64,000 nt of DNA from an uncultured Hyphomicrobiales bacterium (GTDB taxonomy: Bacteria; Bacteroidota; Ignavibacteria; Kapaibacteriales; UBA2268). A model generated the notes under the pieces. That model had not been told where the DNA came from, did not search any database, and saw nothing but the letters and a program-made list of their open reading frames with translations. The stretch lies in assembly GCA_964454445.1 (NCBI GenBank), contig CAYVTD010000012.1:45-64044 (forward strand). The letters are read 5' to 3'. Positions within the stretch are counted from its first letter, which is position 1. Each line of letters begins with the position of its first letter. The translations under genes and the position numbers were made by a program. Below are positions 2,752 through 49,953 of this stretch, in pieces.

Positions 2752-4806
2752 TTACCTTACAACAGAAAGCATTTTTGTTGTTCTTTGCCCATTGAAATCC
2801 AAAACACAATAATATGCACCTTGTGTTAGCTCTGCACTATTGAATCTCAATGTGTGTATGCCTGAAGATATCATACCATTGTAAATTGATAAAACTTTCT
2901 GACCCATAAGGTTAAAAATCTCTAATGTGGCATTACCACTTGCCGGAAGCGTAAAGGTAACATGCCCATCGCTGATAACAGGATTAGGCAATATTTCGTT
3001 GATTACAACATCAACATTCTTTTTATTATTTTCGTTGATGCCAAGGGCAATATCTGCATCAAAATGTCCTAAAAGTACATATTGGGGAGTTTCAATATAA
3101 TTCTGCAATCCACGCTGCCCAACTACATCATTTTCTGATATTGATGGGTCAGGTTTGGTTGCTACTCTAATGATTGGTATATTTTTTAGATCATTTGGTA
3201 TCAAATCGGGAATCCAAGTTAGGCGTTCCAATGTAACATCATCAGTTAATTTTATAACTTTTGACCATTCACCACCAACAGGACGAACCGCAAACCTAAT
3301 ATCAGTTGATAGAACAGGGTCTGTTACACCTTCGACATCCCATGCTGTTACTTCAGTCCATTTTGCAATCAGGTACTGTCCATCGATTGTGCGGCTTATC
3401 TGGAATTCGTAAACCATTTGATTGTGCCATTCACCGTCAGTATTGCGATAGAGAAGAATAGTGTTAATATCTATATCAGATATTGCTCTAACACCCCAAA
3501 CACCGGATTCTCTATAAATCTCAACAACTTTCCTAAATCTTTGTTCGTCGGTAACCTGAGCGGCTTGTTCTTCAGTTAAATAATCCTGTAAAATACATAA
3601 ATAACTGACGTCACCGTTAGGCAGCGCACACATATCGCGGCTAATGGAATATGATTGACCGGTTGACGAATTACTATAACCTCCAAAGGTCATCATAACA
3701 GCATCAGGGAAAACAGCATCGTTTGCTGCTGCGAAGGCAGTAATCATTTCTTTTGGCATAATATCATATTCGCTCCAAGTTTCGCCATAATCTTCCGATT
3801 CTGAAATGGCATAAACGGGCCAATTATTTTCAATCACATCACCAAACACTGCCAATGCAGACATTACCATTTTGCTGCCACCGGCATACTCCAATCCTGT
3901 TAATGAACTATAGCCTGCACCATCTTGGTCATAGTTAATATAATACTTGTTACTAGCCCATTGGTCGGGAATTACAGGTATCCACTTAGTAAAAGATTCA
4001 TCTGGTTTTCTATAAGCAATATTGCTGTTTTGATCGCGAGGTGTCCCAGGGTCCGGAGGTGATACATGACCGGCAGCAAGCCCGTATGGGGTAACACCAT
4101 CATCGTAAAAGCCAGCTACTAATCCTGCGTCTGTGCTCCAACTGAACGTAACAACTCCGCTTTGTGTATCCTTTGTAAAGCTGCCTGTAGTAAGGTTGTA
4201 CTCATTGGAGCCTTCTATATAGATACCATTTAAAAATCCTTGCCAGCCGCTGTTGCCACCTGGGTCAGGACCTGTTATTGGAGCTGTGTATATCACATAA
4301 TAATTGTTGTCTGTATCAACGAAAGGATACAAACTCGGATAGCGTGCCCAGCCAAGATTTTGGTTAGCACTGCTGTAAACTCTGATTGCTGGATCCCAAG
4401 TGAAGCCCAAATCATTAGAAATCAACAAAAACATATCGTCAAGCGAATTCTTTGGGTCTTGTTCCCTTGTGTTTGCGCCACGCTTTAAAGTCATTAGTAA
4501 ACCCCTTGTTGGTTCATACATAAAGGGTTGTTGGCGATAGCTATAATATGAATAACCATTTTGCAAGGAGTCGATTATTGTGAAATCGATACTTTGAATG
4601 CGGTCGCTACGCAGCTTCTCGGATTTGTTTGATAGCAAGGATTGCGATACAACCCCACCATTATATGGCTTGATAGCAGGGATTAGACCAGTTGGCTCTG
4701 TTTGAGTGAGTTCACTAGATAACAACTCGGTATTTGCTGCAAATATCGGCTCTGCAAACAAACCTAATGCTATAATGGCAAGAAAAATTAGTAAATAATA
4801 TTTCAT
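2752..4806 (-). CDS. Secreted BNR/Asp-box repeat protein, sialidase-like, with a C-terminal T9SS sorting domain
   Basis: It has a signal peptide. Asp-box motifs of the form SxDxGxTW are present (SNDLGFTWD, SESEDYGETWSE). The C-terminal ~80 aa (LEIFNLMGQKVLSIYNG...YYCVLDFNGQRTTKMLSVVR) matches the Por_Secre_tail / TIGR04183 pattern. Confidence 0.6.
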   Translation of the reverse strand: MKYYLLIFLAIIALGLFAEPIFAANTELLSSELTQTEPTGLIPAIKPYNGGVVSQSLLSNKSEKLRSDRIQSIDFTIIDSLQNGYSYYSYRQQPFMYEPTRGLLMTLKRGANTREQDPKNSLDDMFLLISNDLGFTWDPAIRVYSSANQNLGWARYPSLYPFVDTDNNYYVIYTAPITGPDPGGNSGWQGFLNGIYIEGSNEYNLTTGSFTKDTQSGVVTFSWSTDAGLVAGFYDDGVTPYGLAAGHVSPPDPGTPRDQNSNIAYRKPDESFTKWIPVIPDQWASNKYYINYDQDGAGYSSLTGLEYAGGSKMVMSALAVFGDVIENNWPVYAISESEDYGETWSEYDIMPKEMITAFAAANDAVFPDAVMMTFGGYSNSSTGQSYSISRDMCALPNGDVSYLCILQDYLTEEQAAQVTDEQRFRKVVEIYRESGVWGVRAISDIDINTILLYRNTDGEWHNQMVYEFQISRTIDGQYLIAKWTEVTAWDVEGVTDPVLSTDIRFAVRPVGGEWSKVIKLTDDVTLERLTWIPDLIPNDLKNIPIIRVATKPDPSISENDVVGQRGLQNYIETPQYVLLGHFDADIALGINENNKKNVDVVINEILPNPVISDGHVTFTLPASGNATLEIFNLMGQKVLSIYNGMISSGIHTLRFNSAELTQGAYYCVLDFNGQRTTKMLSVVR

Positions 4807-7234: not shown

Positions 7235-9037
7235 TCATTCAATCAAAAAATATATATCAACAAAATCCTTGTCAAACCAATGTACCATCAATTCCCGATA
7301 GGATTTGTAATCTTTTGCTTCTATTGTGCTATTCTCGATAAATATCTTCCTGTACACAATGAGTTTACCAGATTTAACCTCTATCTTACTTTTTAATTTG
7401 CCTGCATCGTTAGAAACATCAATAGTTTTGCTGTTTTGAGAAAATTTAATATTATCTGGCAAACTATATTCAAATTCATATTCTTCGTCGATGTTTTTTC
7501 CTATTTCAAGCGGTGTATCACGTTTTTCCGGATTAACAGTTAAACCTATATTTATAAGTGAATTCTTGGGATATGGCAAAGTAAAATACCAAATTTTATC
7601 TGTTATTTTTCCACAAGATTTATTTGTCATTACGATATTACGATCAACATTTGACTGCATATTTGTCTTATAATTATCTTTAATTGAAATTGAATCGTAA
7701 TTAAGAGCTTGATACCAAGATTTGATTGTCTCGTTGATTTCGTCATTTTTAAAAGAAGGAATATTCCTACCTCCTAATTTCAGATACATTTTCGAGTTTA
7801 TTACTTGGCTTTCTGTTATGTCGCCGTTAATTTTCTGATAAATCTTGTCAGATGGAGTAAAATTCTTTTGATTTTCGAGATTTCTCATTGTATTCTTTCC
7901 ATAAAGTCCTTCAATACATATAGTATTTTGTGAGCTATTTGGGTCAAGATAATAGTTTAATCCATCAATTTCGAAAATGACTATTGGCTTTTTGTAACAT
8001 AATATGTTTTCGACGAGTGGATCTTTTCTTTCAACAATAAAATCAATTTCATTTTTTATACCACTTCCATCTAAAAGTGTTTTCAATAAAATAGCCCTGT
8101 CTAGTGATGAACCACTTGCCTTCCGAAGTGTTTTGCTTGCTGAGCGTGGCTTAAAGCCAATAGTTTCGAGTTCGCAAGAACAATAATTGATCCGGGAATG
8201 GACAAATTCGTTTAAGGCAAGAGCTTTCTCCAATTGACTAGGAGTCTCATCATTTACTTTTTCAATCACTTTCTTTATATCATCGTCTTGGAAAAAGATG
8301 CTTTTATCCTGAAAAATATACTTTTCGACTTCTTCAGTTTTCATAGTGGTAAAGCTGACATAGTCAAGTAATTTTTCCATAGCAGGTTGATTTAGCTCAT
8401 CTGGTACCAATGCAATTTTGTTAATAATCCAACTGTAAGTCTTTTTTTTCGAATTATTTGTAATTTCAGGAGTATAAGCTTTATTATAATACAAAGTTTC
8501 GGAGCTTGGTATTGTAACAATAATTTCCAACTTGTCAATAGGGCATCTACCGCCAACACTTATTAAACCATTAAGTCCTGGTAAAAAATCTGCTTTGGTT
8601 TCAATCGAATATTGTAAATCGACTGTCGAGCCTCGTTCGAGGCCAACGTGTGTTATTACCATTTCTCTTAAATTAAAATACGGTACATTACGTGAGGCAC
8701 ACCCAGGCAGGACTTCATTGAAAGCATTTGGCAATGGATCAACTTTTTTGCCATCTTTCATTGTTGTTGTCGCCTTTTTAATTGTTAGTTTCTGCCAATC
8801 TGGATTATAAACTATGAAAGTTTCTCCTAAAGCCCTGTTAATAGAGAAATAACTAAGATATTTTAATTGATGAGTATAATTCAAAACTGTCGAACCATCT
8901 TCATTTAAAATATATTCATATCTAATCAGGTTGTATCGTGCATCTTCGTTTGCACAGAACAAGCCCGAACTAAATACAGAAATAAATACTAATAGATAAA
9001 GAACTCTTACAATGAATTTGTATGTATATTTTTTCAT
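7235..9037 (-). CDS. DUF3857 / transglutaminase-like family protein, a paralog of the downstream gene; the catalytic Cys appears to be replaced by Ser
   Basis: It has a signal peptide and a similar length and architecture to the gene at 9050-11098. Where the neighbour has G-V-C-K-D-K-A, this protein has G-S-S-L-D-R-A, so the nucleophile may be lost. This alignment was done by eye. Confidence 0.5.
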   Translation of the reverse strand: MKKYTYKFIVRVLYLLVFISVFSSGLFCANEDARYNLIRYEYILNEDGSTVLNYTHQLKYLSYFSINRALGETFIVYNPDWQKLTIKKATTTMKDGKKVDPLPNAFNEVLPGCASRNVPYFNLREMVITHVGLERGSTVDLQYSIETKADFLPGLNGLISVGGRCPIDKLEIIVTIPSSETLYYNKAYTPEITNNSKKKTYSWIINKIALVPDELNQPAMEKLLDYVSFTTMKTEEVEKYIFQDKSIFFQDDDIKKVIEKVNDETPSQLEKALALNEFVHSRINYCSCELETIGFKPRSASKTLRKASGSSLDRAILLKTLLDGSGIKNEIDFIVERKDPLVENILCYKKPIVIFEIDGLNYYLDPNSSQNTICIEGLYGKNTMRNLENQKNFTPSDKIYQKINGDITESQVINSKMYLKLGGRNIPSFKNDEINETIKSWYQALNYDSISIKDNYKTNMQSNVDRNIVMTNKSCGKITDKIWYFTLPYPKNSLINIGLTVNPEKRDTPLEIGKNIDEEYEFEYSLPDNIKFSQNSKTIDVSNDAGKLKSKIEVKSGKLIVYRKIFIENSTIEAKDYKSYRELMVHWFDKDFVDIYFLIE

Positions 9038-9049
9038 AATATTTATCTC

Positions 9050-11098
9050 CTATTTCTCTATAATGATTTGCGAATTCATTAATTTATGTCTTTCAATCAA
9101 AGCTTCTCGAAATGTCTTCCAATCCTCTTTCTCATAAACTCTTTTACCCATAGAATGGCTTGCTGTAAGCTTGATTTCGTTGCCTTTAGCTTGATAACGA
9201 GCCTCGAAACTCGAGTTATCTTTCTCATTCAAAGTTTTGAATTCTGGTAATATCATAATTTTAAAATCCGCAGGAATAGTAAGCGTCTCATTCGCCAAAA
9301 ATAATTTAGAGCAGCGAATACGAAAACCATATTTTTTTTCAATGAATGAAGTATCTATGGCAAGTTCAGGCGACATATATCCATCTCTGAATGGATTAAG
9401 AGCAGAAATAGGTGTAAAAATAAACCTCCCATTAGCATATCTTGCAAAATCTGGTATGTAAAAAGAAAATTTTATCCGCATTGGTTTGCTCAAATCGTTT
9501 ACATCTGTTGTTTCAATATTATCAATCTTTGCCTGTGGAAATATATTTGACATATATTCAGGTATATACTTTTCTGCATAAGAAAGCCAAGATCTCGATA
9601 ATGACCTGCGGATCATAGCATCAGACTGCCCTTCGGCTTCAACAGTAAGAGTTCCTTTCAAGGAAGCATCATTGCCAAGTTGCGATTTGACATCAATTTT
9701 CCAATAATGATTCTCAGGAGGAGAAACAGGAGTTGTTTGCAAATCAGCCCCTTCGGGTATCCCCATTAAAAACTCTTGTTGTTGTTCGGCGCTCGACCAC
9801 ATTTCGCGTACACCAGGTATCCAAGTCGGATCGAGCAAAATCCATTTGCCATTCTTTAATTTCGCAACAGTAACACTATGATTAAACTGGTCAGCAGGAA
9901 TTTTCTCAATTCTCGAACCTGCCATTGTCATTGCTGCATAAGATTCAAAACCAGCGGCTCGCAACATCGTTACCAACATTCCAGCTTTATCCTTGCAAAC
10001 ACCACATCTATCAGAAAAAGTCATCTGACCCTTGTGTAAAGTATAGCCTTCGCCCTCACCCATCGAAATGCCAGAATAGCGGACCTCTTCGGCGACCCAG
10101 TGATTTAGAATCTCGATTTTTTTTATCTCATCGCTAACCCCACTTAAAAGTTCATCAGTTTTTTTCTGAACCTCAGGGCTTACCTCGAAGCTACCATAAT
10201 TCTCGTTTACGCCATAAAACCAAAGAGATTTAGAACGCCAATCGGGCGATGTCGATAATAATAGCTTTTCAGCAACATCAGAAGGAGAAACCATATTAGC
10301 CTCGTATTGAAATGGACTAATATCCTTTTTACTCCAACAATACAAGGTCAATCCGGAATCAATTTGAATTTCATTTTTTTCTTCTCTTTTTTCATCTGTT
10401 TTAGCAGTTGGATTCATAAGAACTTCCGTCTCTTTTCTCTTTTTCTTGCCAAAAACTATTTTCGATTCGGCAGTGCCATTGTAAAATTGGTATTGCAATG
10501 GTTTATCTGAAGGTATTTCAAGGCAGTATGCTTTTTCCAAAGTCGGATTAGATACCCAAAAAGGAACAATATCGTAAAAATGTCCCCTCATTGGAGGAAT
10601 AAACCTGTCGTCATCATCTTGAAGCAGGGCATAAGTAAAACCCTTGCGCAAAGTCATAATTTCAATAGCATCTCCTGGCTCAAGAAATCCAAACTCTATC
10701 GCTTTTTGTCTTGCTCCCCAATAGATCATCCTTGCAGGAGCAGGATAATCGTATATCTTTCCATGCCCAATTTCAAGAATTTCTCCATTTTTGCGGTAGA
10801 TCTTTGCCCCAAGCACTTCCACATTTGCTGATTGTGGGTCGTAATCCATAGTATATAATACAAAAGATTTCGCTCCAGCGTCGTTTAACATTTTTATCAA
10901 TTTATGTTCACGAGCATAGCTAAGCCCGCTTTCCTTCACTCGAACATAAGTACTATCAAAAATAACTAATATATTAGCTCCTGGATATTTTTTGGCATCT
11001 CCAGAGTTTTCAATAAGTTGATGGAAATTATCCTGCGACTTCAGTTCGGTTGAAACAAAGAGAGTTAGTAAAATAAGAAGGAAAAAGTATCTCTTCAT
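9050..11098 (-). CDS. DUF3857 domain protein with a transglutaminase-like cysteine-protease core
   Basis: It has a signal peptide. The core motif CGVCKDKAGMLVTMLRAAGFESY...FNHSVTVAKL...WILLDPTW fits the Cys-His-Asp transglutaminase-like superfamily. The N-terminal ~250 aa resemble DUF3857. Confidence 0.65.
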   Translation of the reverse strand: MKRYFFLLILLTLFVSTELKSQDNFHQLIENSGDAKKYPGANILVIFDSTYVRVKESGLSYAREHKLIKMLNDAGAKSFVLYTMDYDPQSANVEVLGAKIYRKNGEILEIGHGKIYDYPAPARMIYWGARQKAIEFGFLEPGDAIEIMTLRKGFTYALLQDDDDRFIPPMRGHFYDIVPFWVSNPTLEKAYCLEIPSDKPLQYQFYNGTAESKIVFGKKKRKETEVLMNPTAKTDEKREEKNEIQIDSGLTLYCWSKKDISPFQYEANMVSPSDVAEKLLLSTSPDWRSKSLWFYGVNENYGSFEVSPEVQKKTDELLSGVSDEIKKIEILNHWVAEEVRYSGISMGEGEGYTLHKGQMTFSDRCGVCKDKAGMLVTMLRAAGFESYAAMTMAGSRIEKIPADQFNHSVTVAKLKNGKWILLDPTWIPGVREMWSSAEQQQEFLMGIPEGADLQTTPVSPPENHYWKIDVKSQLGNDASLKGTLTVEAEGQSDAMIRRSLSRSWLSYAEKYIPEYMSNIFPQAKIDNIETTDVNDLSKPMRIKFSFYIPDFARYANGRFIFTPISALNPFRDGYMSPELAIDTSFIEKKYGFRIRCSKLFLANETLTIPADFKIMILPEFKTLNEKDNSSFEARYQAKGNEIKLTASHSMGKRVYEKEDWKTFREALIERHKLMNSQIIIEK

Positions 11099-11405
11099 CA
11101 GATTTTCCTTAATAAAAATGATAAAAACAACAAAAATAAGAAGTTTAAAGATAGAAAAAAAAGTTGATTCTGAAAAAATTTCTTATATGTTGATATAGGC
11201 AAAATCACGTTTGTTTTTTCCTGATTTTTGTCTTAACTTTATGTTTCTATGAATTGCAAAACCTAGATTAGTTTAATAACTATAATCTTGATCTTACTTA
11301 TTGATAGAAATGCAACTTTTTTAAATGAGAAGATACTATTGTAAGACAAAAACTGTTTCGGCTTATCTTGAAAAATACGAATGTTGAATAAATAAAAAAA
11401 GAACA

Positions 11406-14400
11406 ATGGACAACAAACTCCTCTACAGGATATTTGCATTATTATCCTTTGCAGTTACTTTTGTAGTGTATGCTATGACCGTACAGCCTTCAGTTCCCTT
11501 CTGGGATTGTGGCGAATTCTCTGCTGCATCAATCTGGCAGCAAGTCCCACATCCTCCGGGCGCTCCTCTTTTTTTAATGATTGCCAAGATTTTTCACATT
11601 CTTATACCTTTTGGCGATGACGGCTGGCGCATCAATATGGCTTCAGTAACCGCGACAGCTCTTACCGTGATGTTCCTTTATATAATAACAGTGAAAGTTA
11701 TTTTGAATTTCCGTGAAGAACCAAAAAGCACGGGCGATTCTCTTGCTGTTTATATTGCTCCTTTTGTAGGTTCTCTAGCATTTACTTTTAGCGATACTTT
11801 TTGGTTTAATGGTGTCGAATCAGAAGTATATGCTACATCTTCAGTTTTTGTTGCGATAGTTGTTTATCTAATGATGCGTTGGAACGAAGAAGCAGATAAT
11901 CCTCATAATGAGCGCTATTTGCTTTTAATAGCTTACTTACTTGGCCTTTCGATGGGCGTCCACTTATTGTCTTTACTTACTATATTTTCAGTAGTAATGC
12001 TTGTGTGGATGAGAAAATATTTGGGCAAAACATCAAAGCCGGTCAAGTCAGGCATCATTACAACCATTGTTGGCTTGTTTATTTTTATAATATTTTATAA
12101 AGGCTTCATCAATTGGTATCCAGCATTGCTTTCTGGCGATCTCCCTTTTAAAAATGAAGCAAAAGAGCATTTAATTGAGGACAGCCCCGCAGTCTTTGTT
12201 TTTGCCATTGCTCTGGTAGTGCTTGTGGCTTATGGTCTATATCTTGGCTTTAAGAAAAACAATTCCATTGTCAAGTTTATTTGCATGTCACTATTGCTTA
12301 TGTTTATGGGTTACATGACTTATGCACAAGTGTTAATAAGAACCCACGCCAACCCCCCAATGAATGAAAATGAACCTAAAAGTTTTCCAAAACTTGCCAG
12401 TTATTTAGGCCGCGAACAATATGGCGAAGCTGACAACTGGCCCCGCCGTTATCAACGTGATGAACAATTTATTCAATATTATAATGAAAAAGACAGCCGT
12501 GGCAATTATGTTTATGGAGAATGGTATCCACCTGCAAGAAAAGAAGTAGAACGCAAAGATGGGCAATACATCGTCGTAAACGATTGGAAAAAAATTAATT
12601 TCATGGGCGAAATCAATTATCTCTTTAAGTATCAGATTTACCACATGTATTTGCGCTACTTTTTCTGGAATTTCGTCGGCAGACTGAGCGATGTTCAAGA
12701 TGCTCCTGCTGCTTTTTTCGACAGCAAGGGCTTTGAAAAATGGAATTTCGAATCGGGCTATAAACAACTGTTTCCTATACGTTTCTTTGCAATTCCGCTC
12801 ATATTTGGTTTGATTGGCCTATGGTTTCATTTTTGGCGAGATCCAAAAATGGCAGCTGTCTATTTGATGATGTTTTTGATGATGGGAGTTCTCGCTGCAA
12901 TAGCTCAAAATCAGCAGAACCCACAACCTCGAGAACGTGATTATTTCTACGCAGGCTCGTTTATGGTCTGGTGCATGTGGATTTCACTTGGCACATATTA
13001 TCTGATAGAATGGCTTGCAAAAAAGAAAAATCCCCTTATTGTGTCAAGTATCATTGCCGTTTCGCTTCTTGTTGTGCCTATCAATATGGCTATGGGTGGT
13101 TGGAAAATGCACAGCCGCGCCGGCAACTACTTGCCTTTCGATTATTCCTATAATATATTACAAAGCACAGAGGAAAACGCTATAATTTTTACAAATGGCG
13201 ATAATGACACATTCCCGCTCTGGTATTTGCAAGATGTTGCCGGAGTTAGACGAGACGTCAGGGTAGTTAATCTTAGTTTGGCTAATACTTTATGGTATGT
13301 CGATCAATTGAAAAATCGAAGTCCTTGGGGTTCGCAAAAACTTCCATTATCATTCTCCGACGATAGCATAAAGATTTCTGATACAGACAAGGGCGCCCTT
13401 AGCTACGATTTCGGTGTTGCTTTTAATGTAGCTATTCCTGTTGATAGAGAAATATTAGAAAAATATACAAATGACCCTGCGATACTTGCTGATGGCAATA
13501 TGCGATTCCAATACAAAGCCACTCCTTATGGGCAACAAGACGGTAAAGATTTCTTCCTTTATCAAGTTAGAGATAAATTAATACTCGATATTCTTAAACA
13601 AACAAGATTCAAGAGACCTGTCTATTTTTCAAGAACTGTCGGACCAGATGTTTACAATAATTTAGAACGGTTTTTCCGTACGGAAGGAATGGCTAATCGT
13701 GTGTGTCCAGTCGAACAAAGTAGTGGCGTTGCTTCGAGCATGGAACCGGCAATTATGGATAAATGCCTGATGTACGCGGACAATAGCGATAATTTTAGCA
13801 AAACACCCAAATATGGCTTCAAATTCAGGAATCTTGGCAAACCGGGCGTCTATTATGACGAAGTTCATCGCCGATTGATGAGAAGTTATCGCCAGCTTTA
13901 CATCGAATACGCCCAACATGCTTTCTACAATATGAAAGACAGTGCAAAATCAATAAAGATTCTCGATGAGATGAACAAACAAATCTCAACCGTGTTGTTC
14001 CCATTTTCTTACGACCTCGAATATAAAGTTGCATTGATGTACGATCAGGCAGGAGCGAAGAAAAAAGCAAAGGAATATGCACAATCTGCTGTTAGAAAAT
14101 GCGAGCAAATTATGAATAATCGAGAATTAGAAACTCAATTCAAGATATATGAGGTAATGGGACGATTTTTCGGTCCTTTCCAAATTGCATCTTCACTGTA
14201 TGAAATGCTTGGCGATTACAAGAGCGCCCGCGAATGTATGCGAAAACTCGTAGATGAATCGCGAATGTATGAAGCTCAAATGCACCAGGATCCATCTACA
14301 AAACAGGAAGATATGCAAAGGCTTCAGGAGAATTTGATATACAATATGGCTGCTATTGATCGACTCGTAATTGACGAATTGACAAGCAAAGGCGACACTT

Positions 14401-14579
14401 CCGCCGCTATCGACTCGGCAAACAGGATTATTGACCGCTATGAGAAATCTAAAGATCCTTATGCTGTTTATTTGAAAACATTTATGAAGCGATCATTAAT
14501 GGATATTCAAAAACAAGATTATAATGTCAACCAATTAATACAAGAAGCTGCCGAAGAACCCGTTAATCAAGCCCAGTAG
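11406..14579 (+). CDS. DUF2723 / TMEM260-like GT-C-fold membrane glycosyltransferase with a C-terminal TPR-like helical domain (1057 aa)
   Basis: There are ~11 hydrophobic segments in the first ~560 aa, with an acidic motif PFWDCGEF in the first extracytoplasmic loop. The C-terminal ~450 aa is helical and repeat-like (YDQAGAKKKAKEYAQSA...). A GT2 gene follows 42 nt downstream. Confidence 0.65.
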   Translation: MDNKLLYRIFALLSFAVTFVVYAMTVQPSVPFWDCGEFSAASIWQQVPHPPGAPLFLMIAKIFHILIPFGDDGWRINMASVTATALTVMFLYIITVKVILNFREEPKSTGDSLAVYIAPFVGSLAFTFSDTFWFNGVESEVYATSSVFVAIVVYLMMRWNEEADNPHNERYLLLIAYLLGLSMGVHLLSLLTIFSVVMLVWMRKYLGKTSKPVKSGIITTIVGLFIFIIFYKGFINWYPALLSGDLPFKNEAKEHLIEDSPAVFVFAIALVVLVAYGLYLGFKKNNSIVKFICMSLLLMFMGYMTYAQVLIRTHANPPMNENEPKSFPKLASYLGREQYGEADNWPRRYQRDEQFIQYYNEKDSRGNYVYGEWYPPARKEVERKDGQYIVVNDWKKINFMGEINYLFKYQIYHMYLRYFFWNFVGRLSDVQDAPAAFFDSKGFEKWNFESGYKQLFPIRFFAIPLIFGLIGLWFHFWRDPKMAAVYLMMFLMMGVLAAIAQNQQNPQPRERDYFYAGSFMVWCMWISLGTYYLIEWLAKKKNPLIVSSIIAVSLLVVPINMAMGGWKMHSRAGNYLPFDYSYNILQSTEENAIIFTNGDNDTFPLWYLQDVAGVRRDVRVVNLSLANTLWYVDQLKNRSPWGSQKLPLSFSDDSIKISDTDKGALSYDFGVAFNVAIPVDREILEKYTNDPAILADGNMRFQYKATPYGQQDGKDFFLYQVRDKLILDILKQTRFKRPVYFSRTVGPDVYNNLERFFRTEGMANRVCPVEQSSGVASSMEPAIMDKCLMYADNSDNFSKTPKYGFKFRNLGKPGVYYDEVHRRLMRSYRQLYIEYAQHAFYNMKDSAKSIKILDEMNKQISTVLFPFSYDLEYKVALMYDQAGAKKKAKEYAQSAVRKCEQIMNNRELETQFKIYEVMGRFFGPFQIASSLYEMLGDYKSARECMRKLVDESRMYEAQMHQDPSTKQEDMQRLQENLIYNMAAIDRLVIDELTSKGDTSAAIDSANRIIDRYEKSKDPYAVYLKTFMKRSLMDIQKQDYNVNQLIQEAAEEPVNQAQ

Positions 14580-14621
14580 CAAGTCTATTGAGGGCAATAA
14601 ATACTTTTTTCATTAGGCGTA

Positions 14622-15356
14622 ATGGATATATTCCTGTCTTTGATAATACCCGCATTCAACGAAGAAAAGCGTATCGTGCGCTCGCTGAATGCGGCTATAA
14701 AGTATCTTTCAAGCAAGGATTTTTCTTTTGAGATCATTGTAGTTGACGATGGCTCCGGAGATAATACTATTGGAATCGTAAATGAATATATTGAAAGCCT
14801 TGAAAGTGAATATAAAAACAATATCAGGATAATCTCTCTCGGAGCTAATCTGGGCAAGGGCGCTGCGGTGCGGAATGGAATGCTTGAGGCAAAAGGCAGG
14901 TTCAGGGTGTTTTCTGATGCCGACTTTTCTACTCCTGTTTATGAAATCGAAAAATTATTAAAGTACTTTTCTGAAGGTTACGATATTGTCATTGGTAGTC
15001 GCAGTATAGATCGTTCTATGGTAAAAAAGCATCAGCCTTTTTATCGTGAAACTATGGGAAAAATCTATAATTTATTTGTACAATTGTTCGTTTTCAAGGG
15101 CATTACTGATACTCAATGTGGATTCAAGGGCTTTAGCGACTTAGCTACTACCCAGATTTTTTCTCTTGCAAAGATTAATGGCTTTAGCTTCGACGTTGAA
15201 TTGCTTTATCTTTCGCAAAAATTGGGATTGAAGACTAAACAAGTCCCCGTTGAATGGTATAATGACGAACGAAGTACTGTCAATCCTATAACTGATTCTG
15301 CTAGAATGTTTTACGAATTGCTGAAAATAAAGCGATTACATAAAACAGATACTTGA
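14622..15356 (+). CDS. GT2 glycosyltransferase, polyprenol-phosphate mannose/glucose synthase (Dpm1-like)
   Basis: It carries IIPAFNEEKRI...VVDDGSGDNT and FSDADFS (a DxD motif), and at ~244 aa has the typical size and motifs of Dpm1/Ppm1/GtrB-type enzymes. Confidence 0.8.
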   Translation: MDIFLSLIIPAFNEEKRIVRSLNAAIKYLSSKDFSFEIIVVDDGSGDNTIGIVNEYIESLESEYKNNIRIISLGANLGKGAAVRNGMLEAKGRFRVFSDADFSTPVYEIEKLLKYFSEGYDIVIGSRSIDRSMVKKHQPFYRETMGKIYNLFVQLFVFKGITDTQCGFKGFSDLATTQIFSLAKINGFSFDVELLYLSQKLGLKTKQVPVEWYNDERSTVNPITDSARMFYELLKIKRLHKTDT

Positions 15357-15416: not shown

Positions 15417-17375
15417 TTATTTCTTTTTTATTCTTATCAATATTATATTTTTTGAGCATACTCTACTGGGACTGATTCTTTTTGAGAGTGATATGCTCGT
15501 CAGTTTAGAGTTTTTTTCTATATATTTTTTTAATTTATCTGCTGCTCCTGCCCTGTTTTCATCAAAATATTGAATTTCTATAGACTTTGTAAGCTCTTGA
15601 TAAGCTAGATAATATTGCAGAAGTTTAATATTTTCATCATCGATTAAAAAATCATCAGCAATAGAAAAAAGATAAAACTCGAAATAATGCTCCCCTTCGC
15701 TTGTTACCGTCTTTTCTTCGATTTTATCTACATGAGAAATCAACAGAAGGCGTTCAGTCGAGTCAATACAACCATCAGAACTCTCATAGACATAGCGAAG
15801 CACTAGTTCGTCAGAATTTACTAAAAGTTGTTTGGGAATATTATCCAAGTTAGCATTGATTTCGCTAACGAAGCTATCATCACTACTCAATTCAATTTCT
15901 TTGCCTTCGTTGCCGATTAAAGCTGTCAATCGCCATTTTTTTATCAATTTCTCATCTTTTGTATTTACAAAAACAGTTAGCTCTTCAGGATCGGTAACAA
16001 GTCCTCCATCAATGTTCGTATTTATAATCGGTTCAGACTGAACGGAATGATTGAGTTTAATCCTAAGAAAGCCAGCGATGTTTTCTGGGAGCAAATATTG
16101 CTGATTTGTTTCCAGAACTTCTATCTTAACATTTTTGAATTCTTTTAATAATAATTCCTGATATTCAGCAGCTCTTTTTCTGATTTTTTCTTTGTTATAG
16201 TCGTTTTCTGAAAAAAACTCAATTGTAATAGATGAAACTTTTCTTAGCCTCTCTAGCGGCATTGCTATGCCAAGCTTTCCGCCAATTTCAGACGAAGCAC
16301 CTGGGAAAGATCCATAAGATAAGCTGCTATCCACACAAAGGGAAACAGGAAGAAACTTGCTATCAATTCCAATATTTTCTTTTGCCCAATCTTTATAAAA
16401 GAAAATGTATGGCAAAGGGCGACCAGCCGATTTCTTTAATTCTGCTTTTATTGTGACCAATTCAGAATTTAAGCCAATGGCAATTTTAATTTTTTCTTTT
16501 ATTTCTTTAGGTTCTCCATATTCCTTTTTTGAAACATATAAATCATAATTTCCGGATCGATTTGAAGCAAAAATGGCTCTACCATCTGGTAATAATGAAA
16601 AATCGGAATCATCAAAAGAACTGTTTAGCTCCGAAAGAGGCTGTGGGCTCCTCCATTTTCCATCTATTTGGGCAGAAAAAAATATATCGAAATCACCTTT
16701 AGCCAAGCCGTGTCTGCCATTACTAGCGAAGTATAAAGTATCTCCTTCGCCAATATATGGAGTAATTTCATCTCCGGTTGTATTCAAATCAGGATAAGAA
16801 TACTTCGACAAACTCTCTGGACCGCTCCAGGAGCCATTGCCATAATTAAAACATATCCAAAGGTCAGTATCTCCATTTGTATTGCCTTTGTTCGACGCAA
16901 ATACAATAAAGCTGCCATCTGGTGAAGTCGCCGGATGAGAAGCAAAATACTCGCCTGACAGACTATCAACCACTCTTGAGTTGCCCCAGGCATTTTTATT
17001 CAAAGAACAAGTAAAAAGATTCAAGAAAGAACGTTTTTCATATAAAACAAAGGAAGAAAACAATGCTGTTTCAGCATCTATAAAGGTAATATAAGATTGA
17101 TTGTTTCTTTTTTTGTTAATTCCATTTCCAAGCTTTTCTGCTGGTAAAAATTTCCCATCAACAGACAAAAATGATCGATAAAATAAGGAATACCCCTCTT
17201 TGGTGGAATTAAAATAGAGTGAATTATCATATCTATTGTAACTGGGGGCAAACTCATCTCTCTTGCTGTTTAATTCATCGATAGCCATAGGGATAGACCA
17301 CTTCCAGGCTATCGCACCGGAATAAGATAGCAAACTTAAAAACACTGTCAATAGTATGCAAAATCGACCTTGCAT
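15417..17375 (-). CDS. Secreted TolB-like (PD40 / WD40-like beta-propeller repeat) protein
   Basis: It has a signal peptide and repeated PD40-type motifs (DEFAPSYNRYDNSLYFNS, DGSFIVFASNKGN, DGRAIFASNRSGNYDLY). Confidence 0.5.
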   Translation of the reverse strand: MQGRFCILLTVFLSLLSYSGAIAWKWSIPMAIDELNSKRDEFAPSYNRYDNSLYFNSTKEGYSLFYRSFLSVDGKFLPAEKLGNGINKKRNNQSYITFIDAETALFSSFVLYEKRSFLNLFTCSLNKNAWGNSRVVDSLSGEYFASHPATSPDGSFIVFASNKGNTNGDTDLWICFNYGNGSWSGPESLSKYSYPDLNTTGDEITPYIGEGDTLYFASNGRHGLAKGDFDIFFSAQIDGKWRSPQPLSELNSSFDDSDFSLLPDGRAIFASNRSGNYDLYVSKKEYGEPKEIKEKIKIAIGLNSELVTIKAELKKSAGRPLPYIFFYKDWAKENIGIDSKFLPVSLCVDSSLSYGSFPGASSEIGGKLGIAMPLERLRKVSSITIEFFSENDYNKEKIRKRAAEYQELLLKEFKNVKIEVLETNQQYLLPENIAGFLRIKLNHSVQSEPIINTNIDGGLVTDPEELTVFVNTKDEKLIKKWRLTALIGNEGKEIELSSDDSFVSEINANLDNIPKQLLVNSDELVLRYVYESSDGCIDSTERLLLISHVDKIEEKTVTSEGEHYFEFYLFSIADDFLIDDENIKLLQYYLAYQELTKSIEIQYFDENRAGAADKLKKYIEKNSKLTSISLSKRISPSRVCSKNIILIRIKKK

Positions 17376-21333: not shown

Positions 21334-24300
21334 ATGAAGCCAATTTATCGACACATATTCTCAAAACATAGTGCTATTATGCTGTTAATGCTATGCCTTG
21401 CATTAATGTCTGCTAATGCACAAATAACCACAAAAGGCAAGGACTTTTGGTTCGGATTCATGGAGAACTACAACGAAGACAATCTTACTTTGAAAGTATT
21501 TATTAGCTCCGAGAATAACGCTAGCGGGGTTATCAGCATACCGCAAAACAACTGGACGCAGAATTTTACGGTTACTGCCAATCAAAGCACAATAATTGCC
21601 ATACCCAACAATGTCGGGCACAGTAAGGGCGCTGGTGCGCAAAAAACAGCAATTCACGTTACTACCGACAATGAAGTAAATGTCTTTGCTATGAATTACC
21701 GCAAGGAAAGTTCAGATGGTACTTTGGTTTTACCAACTAATGCATTAGGCAGCAATTATTATGTTATGTCATATACTCCAATGATTAATTCAGAATTTTT
21801 AATTATTGGGGTTGAAGCCAACACTAAATTAGATATAATTTCGCCGTCTGGCACTAAATCGACTTTGACTCTTAACAAAGGCGATGCATACCAATTTAAA
21901 TCAAAAGAAGACTATACCGGGTATTACATCAGTTCTGATGCTTATGGAGCCAAGCCCTTTGCAGTATTTAGCGGTAATCAATGCGTAAATATACCTCCTT
22001 CGATAAGTGCTTGCGATCATATTGTCGAGCAGCTTTTTCCGGTTCGCTCATGGAGACGAACCTTTGTTACAGTGCCTCTACAAACCCGCAACGGCGACAC
22101 ATACAGAATTTTAGCATCCAGAAACAATACAGAAATCAAAATAAATGGCACTTCGGTAGCAGCCCTCAATCAGGGACAATTCTATGAATTAATTTTAAAA
22201 TCTCCAAGTGTCATTGCAGGTAATTATCCTATATGCGTTGCTCAATATAGCAATGGTCAGTCTTATGATAATGCCAATGCAGACCCGTTTATGATAATTT
22301 TAAGCCCTGTCGATCAAACAAGATATGACATTACTTTCCACGTCTTCGATTTCCCAAATATTTCTCATAATTATCTTAATGTTGTTACCAAAACTTCATG
22401 TGTAAGCACTTTGCGGCTCGATGGAGCTGTGATTTCTTCAGCCTTTTCACAAGTTCCATTCGATCCGAGTTACTCTTATGCACAACTTTCCATTTCGCCT
22501 GGCTCGCACCGGTTAATTGGCAATGAAGATTGCGGATTCAATGCTTATGTCTATGGTTACGGTAGTTACGATTCTTATGGCTATTCGGCTGGAACTAGTT
22601 TGGATACTCTATCAATTTCCCTTGTAGTCAATACAAACTGCGCAGGCACCCCAACGGAATTTTTTGTAAAATCGCGCCCATACACCATCAAGAATTATAA
22701 TTGGAACTTTGGAGATGGGAGTACATCATCGCTCGAGCGCCCAAAGCACGCATACAAATCAGGCGGGGTTTACGAAGTGCGACTCGTGGTTACTTATGAC
22801 GACAATGAGAAAGACACTTCAGTCCAAACCTTTGTGATTACCGAACCTAAAGCAAAAATATATTATACTGGAGGAGGTTGCGGTAATCTCAAACTCCAAT
22901 TTACAAATATGTCCACTGTTGTTGGAGGAGTAATTAATTATTATGAATGGGATTTCGGCGATGGTAACAAATCTTTTGTAGAAAATCCTGAACATATTTA
23001 CAACAAGGTCGGTGAATATGATATTGTCCTGATGGTTAGAACAACGAATGGATGTATTTCCTTTGATACAACAAAAATTAATATTTATCCAATGCCAAAA
23101 GTAAATGCCGGAGCAGATGTGGAAATATGCTTGAATAGCTCAACAGAAATAGGCAGCCCTGCAACTAGCGGCACTGCACCATACATTTATCAATGGTCGC
23201 CTTCCACTGGTCTGGATGCCGTCGATAAGCCAACAGTCATTGCCTCACCAAAGGTAACAACAAACTATATTGTTACTGTAACAGATAAACACGGCTGCAT
23301 TGGAAGGGATACAATTCAAGTAATTGTCAATCCGCTTCCGGTTGCTAACGCAGGAAATGATGTTAATATATGTTTTGGCGAAACAATAACCATCGGTTCT
23401 CCAGCTACTGGAGGCACTCCCCCTTATGTAAAATATGAATGGTCTCCTGCCGAAGGGCTAAGTGCAACAAATACTTCTTCTGTCGATGCTTCACCTTTAG
23501 ATACGACAGTATATATTGTAACAGTAACCGATTCCAAAGGATGTATTGATACAGATACAATTAGAGTAAATGTTTGGCCCCTTCCAACACCGGTTATCAA
23601 ACCATTAGGTCCCACTTGGTTTTGCTCTTGCGACAGTGTAATATTAGATGCACAAAACTTCGGTTATACTAACTATTTGTGGTCAACAGGCGAAACAACA
23701 AGAATGATTACTGTTCGCGACCCTGGCAATTATACCGTTACGGTAACTGATACCAATGGCTGTGTGAATACATCACCCCCGGAGACCATTAGCGTTACTT
23801 ATCCCACTGCCAAGATAGCATTACCCTCAACCATTCAATCTGCCAGTACTGGTTCTCAAATCAGCATCCCACTTTTTATCAAAGAATCAGAACATCTTGA
23901 CACTTGCAAGGTATATAAATATCAGGTAAAGATCAGAATGAAACGCTCTTGTCTCGTGCCAATGGATCCTAATAACAAAGGAAATATCGTTGGAGAAGAA
24001 AGAACAATGACATTGAACGGCACAAGAAAACAAGGCGATAGCGTTTTAATGCTCTTTGATTTTATGGCAGTTTTAGGAAATACATCATCGACTTCGCTTG
24101 AAATAATCGATTTCCAATGGCTCGATTGCCCATTTCAAGTCGATACAAGCGGTTCATTTTTCCAAATTGATAATATTTGTCTTGCTGGAAACAAAGAGCG
24201 TCTCTATTTCGAAAATTCCAATCAAATTTCACTAATGCCAAGTATAATAAACTCACAAACAGATGTCCTTTATAAAGTTGCCGAAGATGGCATAGCTAAG

Positions 24301-24474
24301 CTATTTGTTGTCGATATTCTCGGAAGGACGGTCGATAAAATTCTCGAACACAACCATAAGGCAGGATTTTATCAAATCACTTATGATGCTTCAAAAATTA
24401 ACACCGGAATATATTTCTTTGTTCTACAGTCCCCAACTAAAGTTGTTACTAAAATGGCTGAGGTGCAAAAATGA
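21334..24474 (+). CDS. Large T9SS-secreted cell-surface adhesin-like protein with an N-terminal IgGFc-binding-like domain, PKD domains, about four tandem Ig-like Cys-containing repeats (SprB-type) and a C-terminal sorting domain
   Basis: PKD motifs (NWNFGDGSTSS and WDFGDGNKSF) are present. Repeats of ~80 aa of the form NAG.DV.IC......IGSPAT.GT.PY...WSP..GL are visible. The C-terminal domain (KLFVVDILGRTVDKI...GIYFFVLQSPTKVVTKMAEVQK) matches the T9SS sorting-domain pattern. Confidence 0.7.
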   Translation: MKPIYRHIFSKHSAIMLLMLCLALMSANAQITTKGKDFWFGFMENYNEDNLTLKVFISSENNASGVISIPQNNWTQNFTVTANQSTIIAIPNNVGHSKGAGAQKTAIHVTTDNEVNVFAMNYRKESSDGTLVLPTNALGSNYYVMSYTPMINSEFLIIGVEANTKLDIISPSGTKSTLTLNKGDAYQFKSKEDYTGYYISSDAYGAKPFAVFSGNQCVNIPPSISACDHIVEQLFPVRSWRRTFVTVPLQTRNGDTYRILASRNNTEIKINGTSVAALNQGQFYELILKSPSVIAGNYPICVAQYSNGQSYDNANADPFMIILSPVDQTRYDITFHVFDFPNISHNYLNVVTKTSCVSTLRLDGAVISSAFSQVPFDPSYSYAQLSISPGSHRLIGNEDCGFNAYVYGYGSYDSYGYSAGTSLDTLSISLVVNTNCAGTPTEFFVKSRPYTIKNYNWNFGDGSTSSLERPKHAYKSGGVYEVRLVVTYDDNEKDTSVQTFVITEPKAKIYYTGGGCGNLKLQFTNMSTVVGGVINYYEWDFGDGNKSFVENPEHIYNKVGEYDIVLMVRTTNGCISFDTTKINIYPMPKVNAGADVEICLNSSTEIGSPATSGTAPYIYQWSPSTGLDAVDKPTVIASPKVTTNYIVTVTDKHGCIGRDTIQVIVNPLPVANAGNDVNICFGETITIGSPATGGTPPYVKYEWSPAEGLSATNTSSVDASPLDTTVYIVTVTDSKGCIDTDTIRVNVWPLPTPVIKPLGPTWFCSCDSVILDAQNFGYTNYLWSTGETTRMITVRDPGNYTVTVTDTNGCVNTSPPETISVTYPTAKIALPSTIQSASTGSQISIPLFIKESEHLDTCKVYKYQVKIRMKRSCLVPMDPNNKGNIVGEERTMTLNGTRKQGDSVLMLFDFMAVLGNTSSTSLEIIDFQWLDCPFQVDTSGSFFQIDNICLAGNKERLYFENSNQISLMPSIINSQTDVLYKVAEDGIAKLFVVDILGRTVDKILEHNHKAGFYQITYDASKINTGIYFFVLQSPTKVVTKMAEVQK

Positions 24475-48416: not shown

Positions 48417-48437
48417 AATTAATTTTTCAAGCTATTT

Positions 48438-49931: not shown

Positions 49932-49953
49932 TTGGCCTTACCTTTACTTTCCC

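Follow-up and report, generated by a model that had tools for sequence, protein, structure and literature searches.

A small extracytoplasmic glycosylation module is proposed for an uncultured Kapaibacteria-type bacterium, in which two neighbouring plus-strand genes encode a 1057-aa membrane enzyme and a 244-aa GT2 glycosyltransferase. By sequence, the 1057-aa protein is a member of the TMEM260 family with a GT-C fold, and the GT2 protein most likely makes the lipid-linked sugar donor for it. We consider it somewhat probable that the pair combines an Und-P-hexose synthase with a TMEM260-like transferase that would modify Ser/Thr of exported proteins in the periplasm. In this proposal, the assignment of a lipid-linked-sugar synthase plus a transferase is supported, whereas the protein acceptor and the hexose are inferred, the acceptor by analogy with TMEM260. 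The 1057-aa protein is a candidate initiator of Bacteroidota-type O-glycosylation, a step with no known enzyme.

Organization of the two-gene locus

In the window, which denotes the whole 64-kb stretch of DNA that was analysed, the coordinates of both ORFs, each of which starts with ATG, are confirmed, together with the 42-nt distance between them reported in an earlier, sequence-only reading (Table 1). Homolog alignments show that both start codons match the N-termini of homologs. Minus-strand ORFs are located on either side (9050..11098 and 15417..17375), and the pair therefore represents a self-contained two-gene plus-strand unit. In the upstream intergenic region, a sigma-70 consensus scan yields scores no better than shuffles and no Rfam match is found. 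Additionally, a scan of the gap between the two genes reveals no terminator-like site, and no flippase gene is found near the pair.

Table 1. Coordinates of the features of the locus in the window
Feature	Coordinates	Strand	Basis
Divergent intergenic region, AT-rich, 307 nt, preceding the pair; presumed promoter region	11099..11405	.	Sequence; promoter role presumed
Gene, 1057-aa TMEM260-like GT-C glycosyltransferase	11406..14579	+	
First periplasmic loop motif PFWDCGEF...PH, codons 31-49, with D34 and H49	11496..11552	+	HMMER alignment to 9rql; invariant in 26 homologs
Two transmembrane helices that TMEM260 lacks, codons ~221-293	12066..12284	+	hhalign insertion; AF2
REQYG, codons 336-340; R336 and Y339 correspond to R264 and Y267 of the TMEM260 donor-loading loop (REEYG)	12411..12425	+	Profile-profile alignment
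PQPRERDY, codons 506-513, invariant, periplasmic start of a TM helix, beside the position aligned with TMEM260 R355	12921..12944	+	Homolog alignment; HMMER
Periplasmic α/β (Rossmann-like) domain, codons 576-790, with NGDNDTFP (597-604); D599 corresponds to TMEM260 catalytic base D441	13131..13775	+	HMMER; AF2; PF28495
Helical-repeat (TPR-like) periplasmic domain, codons 819-1056; presumed acceptor-binding module	13860..14573	+	AF2; Foldseek; binding role by analogy with TMEM260
Intergenic spacer, 42 nt	14580..14621	+	No terminator-like hairpin
Gene, 244-aa GT2, putative polyprenyl-phosphate hexose synthase (DPM1/ALG5/GtrB/ArnC type), no TM segment	14622..15356	+	PF00535; PDB profile; fold
VVDDGSGD, GT2 codons 40-47, nucleotide-sugar binding motif of GT-A/GT2 enzymes	14739..14762	+	Aligns with VVDDDSPD (PfDPMS) and LIDDGSSD (ArnC)
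DAD, GT2 codons 99-101, DxD metal and nucleotide-sugar motif	14916..14924	+	Aligns with DAD of PfDPMS and ArnC; invariant in 22 homologs
C-terminal amphipathic helix, GT2 codons 222-239; likely membrane-interface helix	15285..15338	+	AF2 helix; hydrophobic moment

Family, domains and conserved residues of the 1057-aa protein

The 1057-aa protein matches Pfam PF11028 with 195.6 bits (E = 8e-58; cut-off 24.2) and the GT2 protein matches PF00535 with 105.5 bits (E = 3.6e-30; cut-off 23.3), scores far above the cut-offs, and these family matches are therefore not by chance. Homologs of the 1057-aa protein bear the precomputed Pfam domain PF28495 'TMEM260_2'. Among PDB sequences, HMMER finds a single match, human TMEM260, a protein O-mannosyltransferase of PF11028 (PDB 9RQL, 9RQM and 9RQN), which is homologous along two collinear stretches, the GT-C core and the first luminal domain. 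The earlier assignment of the large protein to the GT-C fold is thus borne out by both HMM and structure searches, which narrow it to the TMEM260 family.

In a hydropathy scan, residues 9-562 show 11 peaks, in agreement with the approximately 11 transmembrane segments counted previously, and the AF2 model, which has low confidence in the active-site loops, shows about 13 long helices in the same region. Specifically, hhalign against TMEM260 skips residues 221-293 as an insertion, in which AF2 helices 212-242 and 261-283 are seen. The soluble C-terminal region, formerly described as a TPR-like domain of about 450 aa, comprises 495 aa (563-1057). Helical or TPR-like structure is confined to the last ~240 aa of it (819-1056). 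The region is not merely TPR-like, because residues 576-790 form an α/β domain in the AF2 model, which corresponds in the HMMER alignment to the Rossmann-like luminal domain of TMEM260 (residues 564-640 to TMEM260 406-482), and the helical repeats follow it. Residues 819-1056 are all-helical in the AF2 model, with TPR proteins among the Foldseek matches and a sub-threshold Pfam TPR_6 at 925-951. The order of transmembrane GT-C core, Rossmann-like domain and helical repeats is that of human TMEM260. Unlike human TMEM260, which has 707 aa, the bacterial protein contains the two extra TM helices and a ~115-aa periplasmic loop insertion after REQYG, and its α/β and helical domains are larger.

Of the six TMEM260 residues whose importance was demonstrated by mutagenesis, five are present in the bacterial protein. 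HMMER and profile-profile alignments equate human D52, H67, R264, Y267 and D441 with D34, H49, R336, Y339 and D599, respectively, all of which are invariant in 26 homologs. In TMEM260, each alanine change at these five positions abolishes activity, and D52 and H67 constitute the sugar-recognition motif (bioRxiv 10.64898/2026.03.17.711096). PFWDCGEF, as quoted before, occupies residues 31-38, with D34 assigned to the first periplasmic loop; the conservation of H49, R336/Y339 and D599 adds to that observation. For the REQYG region, the profile-profile alignment to TMEM260, in which the human numbering was checked, has a probability of 96.9% (E = 1.5e-10), and 130/150 family representatives carry the motif R[EDQ]x[YF]G. 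HMMER sets TMEM260 R355 against Y513, with the invariant R511 and R509 standing 2-4 residues upstream. The residues with which TMEM260 contacts its acceptor are not kept in the HMMER alignment (R439 to N597 and E466 to S624), and the TMEM260 IPT-domain sequon is not found in the ORFs of the window.

The same donor and GT-C logic could serve a non-protein acceptor, as in an ArnT-like or side-chain modification of lipid A or LPS core, peptidoglycan, exopolysaccharide or an already attached glycan. Polysaccharide decoration by systems of GT2 and GT-C enzymes is common (PMC11127046, PMC8035078), and in Ignavibacteria-type loci the GT-C gene is followed by a gene of the GT9 heptosyltransferase family, in 8 loci, or by a GT4 gene, which provides an envelope-glycan setting. 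We nevertheless regard such an acceptor as unlikely, given that TMEM260 is the sole sequence-level match among solved structures, that the two proteins share their domain order, and that the aspartate of the Rossmann-like domain, which deprotonates the Thr acceptor in TMEM260, is retained. To our knowledge, ArnT has no periplasmic module of Rossmann-like and helical-repeat domains.

The sequence-only reading had also called bacterial DUF2723 proteins uncharacterised. A literature search on the bacterial TMEM260-like family finds no paper with experiments on any bacterial member, but the names that Pfam, NCBI and JGI already give to these proteins are TMEM260-like or protein O-mannosyl-transferase family. 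The prediction of a TMEM260-related enzyme with a probable donor synthase, implied by these names, is well supported.

The GT2 protein and its linkage to the GT-C gene

A GT2 profile searched against PDB sequences retrieves DPMS (3.5e-26), ArnC (8e-21) and GtrB (2e-20). In line with the sequence matches, the 18 best Foldseek matches of the AF2 model (pLDDT 90.1) are all ArnC, DPMS or GtrB, with TM-scores of 0.63-0.77 on query length, and the alignments to ArnC and DPMS extend over 231-251 columns, almost the whole protein. Homologs are named dolichyl-phosphate beta-glucosyltransferase in their source records, and the motifs VVDDGSGD and DAD are found as quoted. Together with its length of 244 aa and the lack of any TM segment in a hydropathy scan, these matches group the protein with DPMS/ArnC/GtrB rather than with processive synthases, as had been anticipated. 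GtrB, ArnC and PfDPMS, unlike this GT2, have TM helices. The C-terminal helix of this GT2 is its likely contact with the membrane; the segment 217-234, overlapping the first half of helix 222-239, has a hydrophobic moment of 0.59, and the protein maximum is 0.60.

The neighbourhood survey covered 80 related loci, and adjacency was scored in the 61 with enough flank. The GT-C gene has a GT2 ortholog in its neighbourhood more often than any other gene (32/80 loci; the second-commonest occurs in 14), and this ortholog is adjacent in 25/61 loci and in 20/37 of the close orthologs. The pairing thus recurs in related genomes, which the sequence-only reading had set as a test, yet it is missing from more than half of the scored loci (35/61) and from 13 of the 15 most distant, in which GT9 and GT4 genes follow the GT-C gene instead. 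No other flanking gene is conserved in the related loci, and none of the 80 contains homologs of the window's own flanking genes; the pair is kept, with differing flanks, in one genome of 4.2 Mb and another of 5.5 Mb. The GT2 gene lies downstream, upstream or between two TMEM260-like paralogs (L052 and L059), and one locus (L036) has the order paralog-paralog-GT2. This variation favours selection on linkage over inheritance of one ancestral arrangement.

It appears improbable that the two genes are mere neighbours without a common pathway. The GT2 would then serve, for example, glycolipid, carotenoid or compatible-solute glycosylation, and a different synthase would supply the donor of the GT-C enzyme. 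The loci without adjacency and the absence of a TM segment would fit such a separation, as would weaker matches to glucosyl-3-phosphoglycerate synthases and other soluble GT2 enzymes and the failure to reach any NCBIfam equivalog cut-off (the best match, PgfS, is far below its own). It is countered by the predominance of the GT2 among otherwise variable neighbours, its same strand and short gap, its shifting position and its 18 best fold matches, all polyprenyl-phosphate glycosyltransferases.

Proposed pathway and comparison with known systems

For the favoured module, family and fold suggest that the GT2 would be held by its amphipathic helix at the cytoplasmic side of the inner membrane and would make Und-P-hexose there, by moving one hexose, glucose or mannose, from a nucleotide sugar onto undecaprenyl phosphate. 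A flippase encoded elsewhere would take the lipid-linked sugar to the periplasmic face. The donor would then be held in the transmembrane core of the 1057-aa enzyme, contacted by D34 and H49 (first periplasmic loop) and by R336 and Y339 (REQYG loop), and D599 of the Rossmann-like domain may act as general base in an inverting transfer to the acceptor hydroxyl. Analogy with TMEM260 makes a Ser or Thr the most likely acceptor; it would lie in an extended segment of an exported protein that the C-terminal helical-repeat domain holds. Nothing was found in support of T9SS cargo as targets, which had been suggested earlier.

TMTC1-4 (GT105) are GT-C O-mannosyltransferases grouped with TMEM260 by a common luminal TPR domain (PMC10214176); these eukaryotic enzymes lack the Rossmann-like domain bearing the catalytic base, and no sequence-level match between them and the 1057-aa protein is found. 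In three-component systems (GtrA/GtrB/Gtr*, ArnC/ArnEF/ArnT and CsbB/GtcA/YfhO), a GT-C transferase likewise works with a GT2 polyprenyl-phosphate sugar synthase (PMC11127046, PMC8035078, PMC7389260), but the sugar goes to glycans, lipid A or teichoic acids rather than to proteins, and a flippase gene is absent in or beside the bacterial pair. The same two-step logic towards proteins is seen in actinobacterial Ppm1 and Pmt, in which a GT2 polyprenyl-phosphate mannose synthase provides the donor to a GT-C enzyme, and exported proteins are O-glycosylated by the latter outside the cytoplasmic membrane (PMC8698208, PMC6593405); Pmt belongs to a different GT-C family (PMT/GT39) without a Rossmann-like or TPR module. 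In streptococcal GtrB with PgtC2 and PgfS with PgfM, the GT2 makes Und-P-Glc or Und-P-GalNAc and the GT-C enzyme O-glycosylates Ser/Thr-rich extracytoplasmic protein regions (PMC12041528). These systems share the logic of the pair but differ in GT-C family, Gram-positive host and the C-terminal TM helices of their GT2 enzymes. Compared with TMEM260 itself, the bacterial enzyme would be expected to use undecaprenyl rather than dolichyl phosphate as lipid carrier, and its gene adjoins that of the putative donor synthase.

The large protein as a member of the TMEM260 family

The large protein, the putative GT-C enzyme of the pair, carries the TMEM260-like domain PF11028 at residues 34-205 (Pfam; E=7.7e-58, 195.6 bits vs a cut-off of 24.2), and precomputed annotation from a newer Pfam release places PF28495 ('TMEM260_2') on it, on the identical protein in two of the loci compared with the window (L081 and L082) and on all 120 homologs listed; no NCBIfam model matched it. 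Among all PDB sequences its sole match is human TMEM260 (9RQL, 9RQM and 9RQN), with an E value of 1e-17 for the single sequence and 2.8e-23 for a 26-sequence profile. The match consists of two collinear stretches: residues 14-203, in the GT-C core, align with residues 32-205 of TMEM260, and residues 564-640, where the soluble domain begins, align with 406-482. Sequence comparison identifies the large protein as an uncharacterised bacterial member of the known TMEM260 family.

The architecture of the protein follows that of TMEM260. The roughly 11 transmembrane segments counted in the sequence-only reading were recovered by a Kyte-Doolittle scan as 11 hydrophobic peaks from residue 9 to residue 562, and the transmembrane region adopts the GT-C fold of the family. 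In the AF2 model, an α/β domain (576-790) is followed by an all-helical domain (819-1056), which reproduces the Rossmann-like-then-TPR order of TMEM260. The helical domain matches TPR folds in Foldseek, and TPR models of Pfam score at 925-951 only below threshold. Helical repeats are present in what that reading described as a ~450-aa TPR-like domain, but they are preceded by a Rossmann-like catalytic domain. Compared with human TMEM260, the large protein has two additional TM helices (about residues 221-293) and roughly 115 aa of periplasmic sequence inserted after REQYG, and its α/β and helical domains are larger. A PglB/PglL-type oligosaccharyltransferase acting on Und-PP-glycans was considered and rejected, as PglB matches at the fold level only (11% identity, TM-score 0.39 on target) and the adjacent synthase makes monophosphate-linked donors.

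In TMEM260, D52 and H67 of the first luminal loop serve in sugar binding, R264 and Y267 of the donor-loading loop bind phosphate and sugar, and D441 of the luminal Rossmann-like domain is the catalytic base; alanine at any of these positions abolishes activity, and R355A, in TMH10, lowers it to ~20% (bioRxiv 10.64898/2026.03.17.711096). The counterparts of the former residues are all conserved in the large protein. In the alignments, D34 and H49 correspond to D52 and H67 (HMMER), D599 (within NGDNDTFP) to D441 (within RGD), and R336 and Y339 to R264 and Y267 (SYLGREQYG vs HFLREEYG; hhalign, probability 96.9%, E=1.5e-10). All five are invariant among 26 homologs, and the whole run N597, G598, D599, N600, D601, T602, F603 and P604 is invariant in the 26-sequence alignment. 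The bacterial enzymes share the split active site of TMEM260: the membrane core supplies the donor-binding residues, and the Rossmann-like domain supplies the catalytic base.

The hhalign comparison set a 123-sequence bacterial profile against 9 eukaryotic sequences, numbered through a near-human fragment (P0396) that covers residues 77-409 and whose index plus 76 gives the human position; the homolog search with a human TMEM260 fragment, from which P0396 came, yielded only fragments no longer than 335 aa. Only this broader profile reached the REQYG/REEYG columns and so placed R336 and Y339: hhalign with the 26-sequence profile extended only over residues 15-220, phmmer of residues 205-520 against PDB sequences gave no match, pairwise Smith-Waterman alignment of the REQYG loop region alone was no better than shuffles, and a mixed MAFFT alignment misplaced the loop. 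R355 of TMEM260 falls on Y513 at the alignment edge (HMMER), and the invariant R509 and R511 (PQPRERDY) stand 2-4 residues upstream of it. Most of the nine TMEM260-family features listed for comparison are present in the large protein, and none failed outright; R355 and the acceptor sequon gave no clear result.

AF2 confidence within the large protein drops below 50 in five segments (33-51, 316-323, 335-340, 506-509 and 599-602), all of which coincide with invariant motifs of the family. The best-conserved residues are thus those placed with least confidence, a pattern that probably marks flexible, ligand-dependent active-site loops, here modelled with no ligand present.

The GT2 encoded downstream

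The GT2 has a GT-A fold and belongs to PF00535 (Pfam, E=3.6e-30). With a 22-sequence profile against PDB sequences, its top match is the Pyrococcus Dol-P-Man synthase (3.5e-26, 95.7 bits), followed by ArnC (8e-21, 78.1 bits) and GtrB (1.9e-20, 76.9 bits); chondroitin synthase reaches 69.6 bits over two stretches, and all other PDB matches score at most 51 bits. In line with this ranking, the AF2 model (pLDDT 90.1) retrieves only ArnC, DPMS or GtrB at Foldseek ranks 1-18, with TM-scores of 0.63-0.77 on query length, and the alignments to these folds span 231-251 columns, nearly the whole protein. The DAD at 99-101, a motif quoted in the sequence-only reading and confirmed here, aligns with the metal-binding DAD of PfDPMS and ArnC. 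On sequence and modelled fold, the GT2 is closer to the polyprenyl-phosphate glycosyltransferases than to other GT2 enzymes, by a moderate margin. A processive enzyme of cellulose- or chitin-synthase type was rejected: the protein is only 244 aa long and lacks TM segments, and the similarity to NodC and PgaC is weak and confined to the N-terminal part.

GtrB and ArnC possess two C-terminal transmembrane helices and PfDPMS has four, whereas a Kyte-Doolittle scan found no hydrophobic segment in the GT2. Human DPM1 likewise lacks a TM helix, and C-terminal TM helices are therefore not a family-wide feature of DPM1/ALG5/GtrB/ArnC enzymes. The AF2 model ends in a helix at 222-239, a candidate amphipathic membrane-interface helix, and the segment 217-234, which overlaps its first half, has a hydrophobic moment of 0.59.

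The GT2 stays far under the NCBIfam equivalog cut-offs for PgfS, ArnC, AglJ and PpgS, the best score being 84.7 bits (PgfS, cut-off 500), and its other NCBIfam equivalog scores are also far too low. Close homologs are named 'dolichyl-phosphate beta-glucosyltransferase' by JGI and NCBI, whereas the closest solved structure is a mannose enzyme, so no single sugar can be named for the GT2.

Linkage of the two genes in the window and in relatives

The two genes form a compact unit (table). The 42-nt spacing noted from the sequence was borne out between the stop of the large-protein gene and the start of the GT2 gene, no terminator-like hairpin was found within it, and the N-termini of both proteins are consistent with those of their homologs. 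PFWDCGEF lies at 31-38 of the large protein and VVDDGSGD at 40-47 of the GT2, as quoted earlier. Because both bordering genes are on the minus strand, the pair is a self-contained unit of the plus strand. Its neighbours are two DUF3857/transglutaminase-like genes, a PD40-repeat protein, TrkA/TrkH and T9SS-CTD proteins, with ordinary housekeeping and regulatory genes farther away in the window. Among ORFs of at least 120 aa, no flippase gene of GtrA, ArnEF or GtcA type was found in the locus, and no glycan-assembly cluster was found around the pair in the window. A promoter and terminator scan did not rise above shuffles, no RNA element had a credible Rfam match, and a repeat search gave nothing beyond short chance matches. 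The identical pair is also present in the MAG GCA_029562445.1 and in one JGI metagenome.

Features of the glycosyltransferase pair and its surroundings in the window
Feature	Position	Strand	Description
Large-protein gene	11406..14579	+	ATG-initiated ORF, 1057 aa
GT2 gene	14622..15356	+	Second ORF, 244 aa
Bordering gene	9050..11098	-	
Bordering gene	15417..17375	-	
Tandem DUF3857 genes	7235-11098	-	682 aa with transglutaminase core; 600 aa with DUF3858
T9SS-CTD gene	2752-4806	-	
T9SS-CTD gene	21334-24474	+	1046 aa, IgGFc-binding and PKD domains
OmpA-family gene	24471-26465		664 aa
T9SS-CTD gene	59695-62754	+	
Regulatory cluster	47016-51360	-	PAS-domain protein, histidine kinase, sigma-54 activator
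PglZ-fused gene	51631-53235	+	Response regulator fused to PglZ domain

Several further features of the window were recorded. The tandem DUF3857 genes are paralogous and divergent from the glycosyltransferase pair; a transglutaminase-like gene also lies upstream in the related locus L086, but in none of the 80 scanned loci. The stop of the T9SS-CTD gene with IgGFc-binding and PKD domains overlaps the start of the OmpA-family gene, and the PglZ-fused response regulator adjoins the regulatory cluster.

Scanning a single genome per species turned up at least 596 relatives. The best 80 loci were analysed; these have 35-57% identity and come from Kapaibacteria, Ignavibacteria, Melioribacteraceae, Kryptonia and related MAGs. 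With >200 bits defining a GT2 ortholog, such a gene occurs in 32 of the 80 loci and is the commonest neighbour of the TMEM260-like gene, the next family reaching 14 loci. Conservation of the pairing in relatives, which the sequence-only reading set as a check, is upheld in this sense, though the genes adjoin in only 25 of the 61 loci that have 900 nt or more of sequence on each side: the GT2 comes directly downstream on the same strand in 23 and directly upstream in 2, and in 1 more it is nearby. Adjacency amounts to 20/37 among close orthologs (>=1000 bits) and 2/15 among the most distant loci (<750 bits). None of the 80 loci contains homologs of the window's own flanking genes, and two large genomes (4.2 and 5.5 Mb) retain the pair amid wholly different neighbours. 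Additionally, in L052 and L059 the GT2 has a full-length TMEM260-like paralog on either side, and in L036 it follows two paralogs, which is the order expected if one donor synthase feeds several transferases. This arrangement suggests that a single synthase serves transferases with different acceptors. Given the recurrent adjacency, the changing flanks and the paralog arrangements, the linkage of the TMEM260-like gene and the GT2 is real, but not universal, and it is unlikely that the two are unrelated genes that merely happen to adjoin.

In Ignavibacteria- and Melioribacter-type loci without an adjacent GT2, a GT9 (heptosyltransferase-family) gene stands directly downstream in 8, for example at 9025-10134 of L070, and a GT4 gene is found slightly farther downstream of the TMEM260-like gene in about 6 loci. 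These neighbours hint that in those lineages the TMEM260-like gene is connected with the synthesis of envelope glycans. They also speak for the main rival to a protein acceptor, namely a non-protein acceptor as in ArnT or in side-chain glycosylation systems, and the equal similarity of the large protein's fold to ArnT and Aft enzymes points the same way; we nevertheless judge this alternative unlikely.

Other observations on these loci are as follows. Pairs of full-length TMEM260-like paralogs stand side by side at 2776-9888 of L036, 3523-11686 of L052, 1088-9084 of L059 and 1076-9066 of L058. A HemN-like radical-SAM gene is immediately upstream of the TMEM260-like gene in 14 loci, and, upstream on the same strand, signal peptidase I (S26) occurs in about 10 (e.g. 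3577-4626 of L045) and a LepA-like GTPase in about 8 (e.g. 849-2735 of L051). In the 4.2-Mb genome GCA_942493235.1 (L085, 1-5500), the pair is directly downstream of small minus-strand genes, including Phage_Mu_Gp36 and CHAP-domain proteins, a block that is probably a prophage remnant. Ten loci (L002, L004, L013, L020, L031, L040, L041, L043, L044 and L058) are 'MAG TPA_asm' records titled 'uncultured Hyphomicrobiales', and L051 is titled 'uncultured Alphaproteobacteria'. Their orthologs are 47-61% identical and of Kapaibacteria or Ignavibacteria type, the same gene pair being present in L002, L004, L031 and L043, and these taxonomic labels look unreliable.

A proposed two-step pathway and its bearing on general O-glycosylation

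We propose that, on the cytoplasmic side of the membrane, the GT2 would charge undecaprenyl phosphate with a hexose, that an unlinked flippase would carry the charged lipid across, and that the GT-C enzyme would then pass the sugar with inversion to a periplasmic hydroxyl, with D599 as the base. The acceptor would probably be a Ser or Thr within an extended part of an exported protein that the helical-repeat domain holds. The division of labour between a donor synthase and a transferase is very probable, and the full model, protein acceptor included, is reasonably likely. The IPT-domain sequon of TMEM260, P-x5-P-x3-G-P-x2-G/A-G-G-x2-T/S, does not occur in any of the window's 50 ORFs of 150 aa or more; this search spans only 64 kb of the genome, and the bacterial enzyme need not have the acceptor specificity of the human one. 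The suggestion that T9SS cargo proteins are the targets found nothing in its favour beyond the presence of three T9SS-CTD genes in the window.

The pair represents a known kind of two-step pathway, and its interpretation is already largely implied by current databases. In actinobacterial Ppm1/Pmt, too, exported proteins are O-glycosylated by a GT-C enzyme that a GT2 supplies (PMC8698208), and the streptococcal GtrB/PgtC2 and PgfS/PgfM systems follow the same GT2-to-GT-C logic of protein O-glycosylation (PMC12041528). Three-component glycan-modifying systems (PMC11127046) are alike, but the pair lacks their linked flippase. TMEM260 was recognised as a protein O-mannosyltransferase in 2023, in a paper whose only words on bacterial relatives are 'distant homologs in bacteria' (PMC10214176), and its structure followed in 2026 (10.64898/2026.03.17.711096). 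Our literature search turned up no paper that addresses what any bacterial DUF2723/TMEM260-like protein does.

What raises the pair above routine annotation is the open question of the missing initiator of O-glycosylation. In the general O-glycosylation of Bacteroidota, the OTase, core flippase and ligase 'remain undiscovered', and a 2025 review, noting that the pathway resembles eukaryotic O-mannosylation, suggests seeking homologs of its enzymes (PMC12871550). The initiating enzyme is expected to place the reducing-end hexose on D(S/T)(A/I/L/V/M/T) motifs and to be conserved across the phylum. According to a July 2026 preprint, the OTase is still unidentified; the only published candidate is YfhO, which that preprint predicts on in-silico grounds, and P. 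gingivalis, an O-glycosylating species, has no YfhO (10.64898/2026.07.27.740950). Besides YfhO, a TMEM260-like enzyme encoded with a donor synthase of its own becomes a second candidate, open to direct testing. Such an enzyme, together with a dedicated Und-P-hexose synthase, might initiate general O-glycosylation in the Bacteroidota-Ignavibacteriota-Chlorobiota group by placing the conserved hexose of the reducing end (mannose) on Ser/Thr residues of exported proteins, sugar by sugar rather than en bloc from Und-PP. We regard this extension as a long shot, because the organism of the window lies outside Bacteroidota proper, because the current model favours en bloc transfer, and because the presence of the family in the species where the system was characterised (B. 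fragilis, P. gingivalis and F. johnsoniae) could not be checked.

The split active site, the frequently adjacent synthase and the synthase placed between paralogs turn a database label into a concrete, testable two-gene model of how a major bacterial lineage could O-glycosylate proteins in the periplasm. The pair may additionally provide a simpler system for TMEM260 chemistry, which is relevant to human SHDRA syndrome. At 50% identity the bacterial family, a very large one, numbers 17,476 clusters under a limit of E ≤ 1e-3 and 1,883 under E ≤ 1e-30, it extends to a Bacteroidia MAG (homolog P0300), and annotation pipelines already label members 'protein O-mannosyl-transferase family'.
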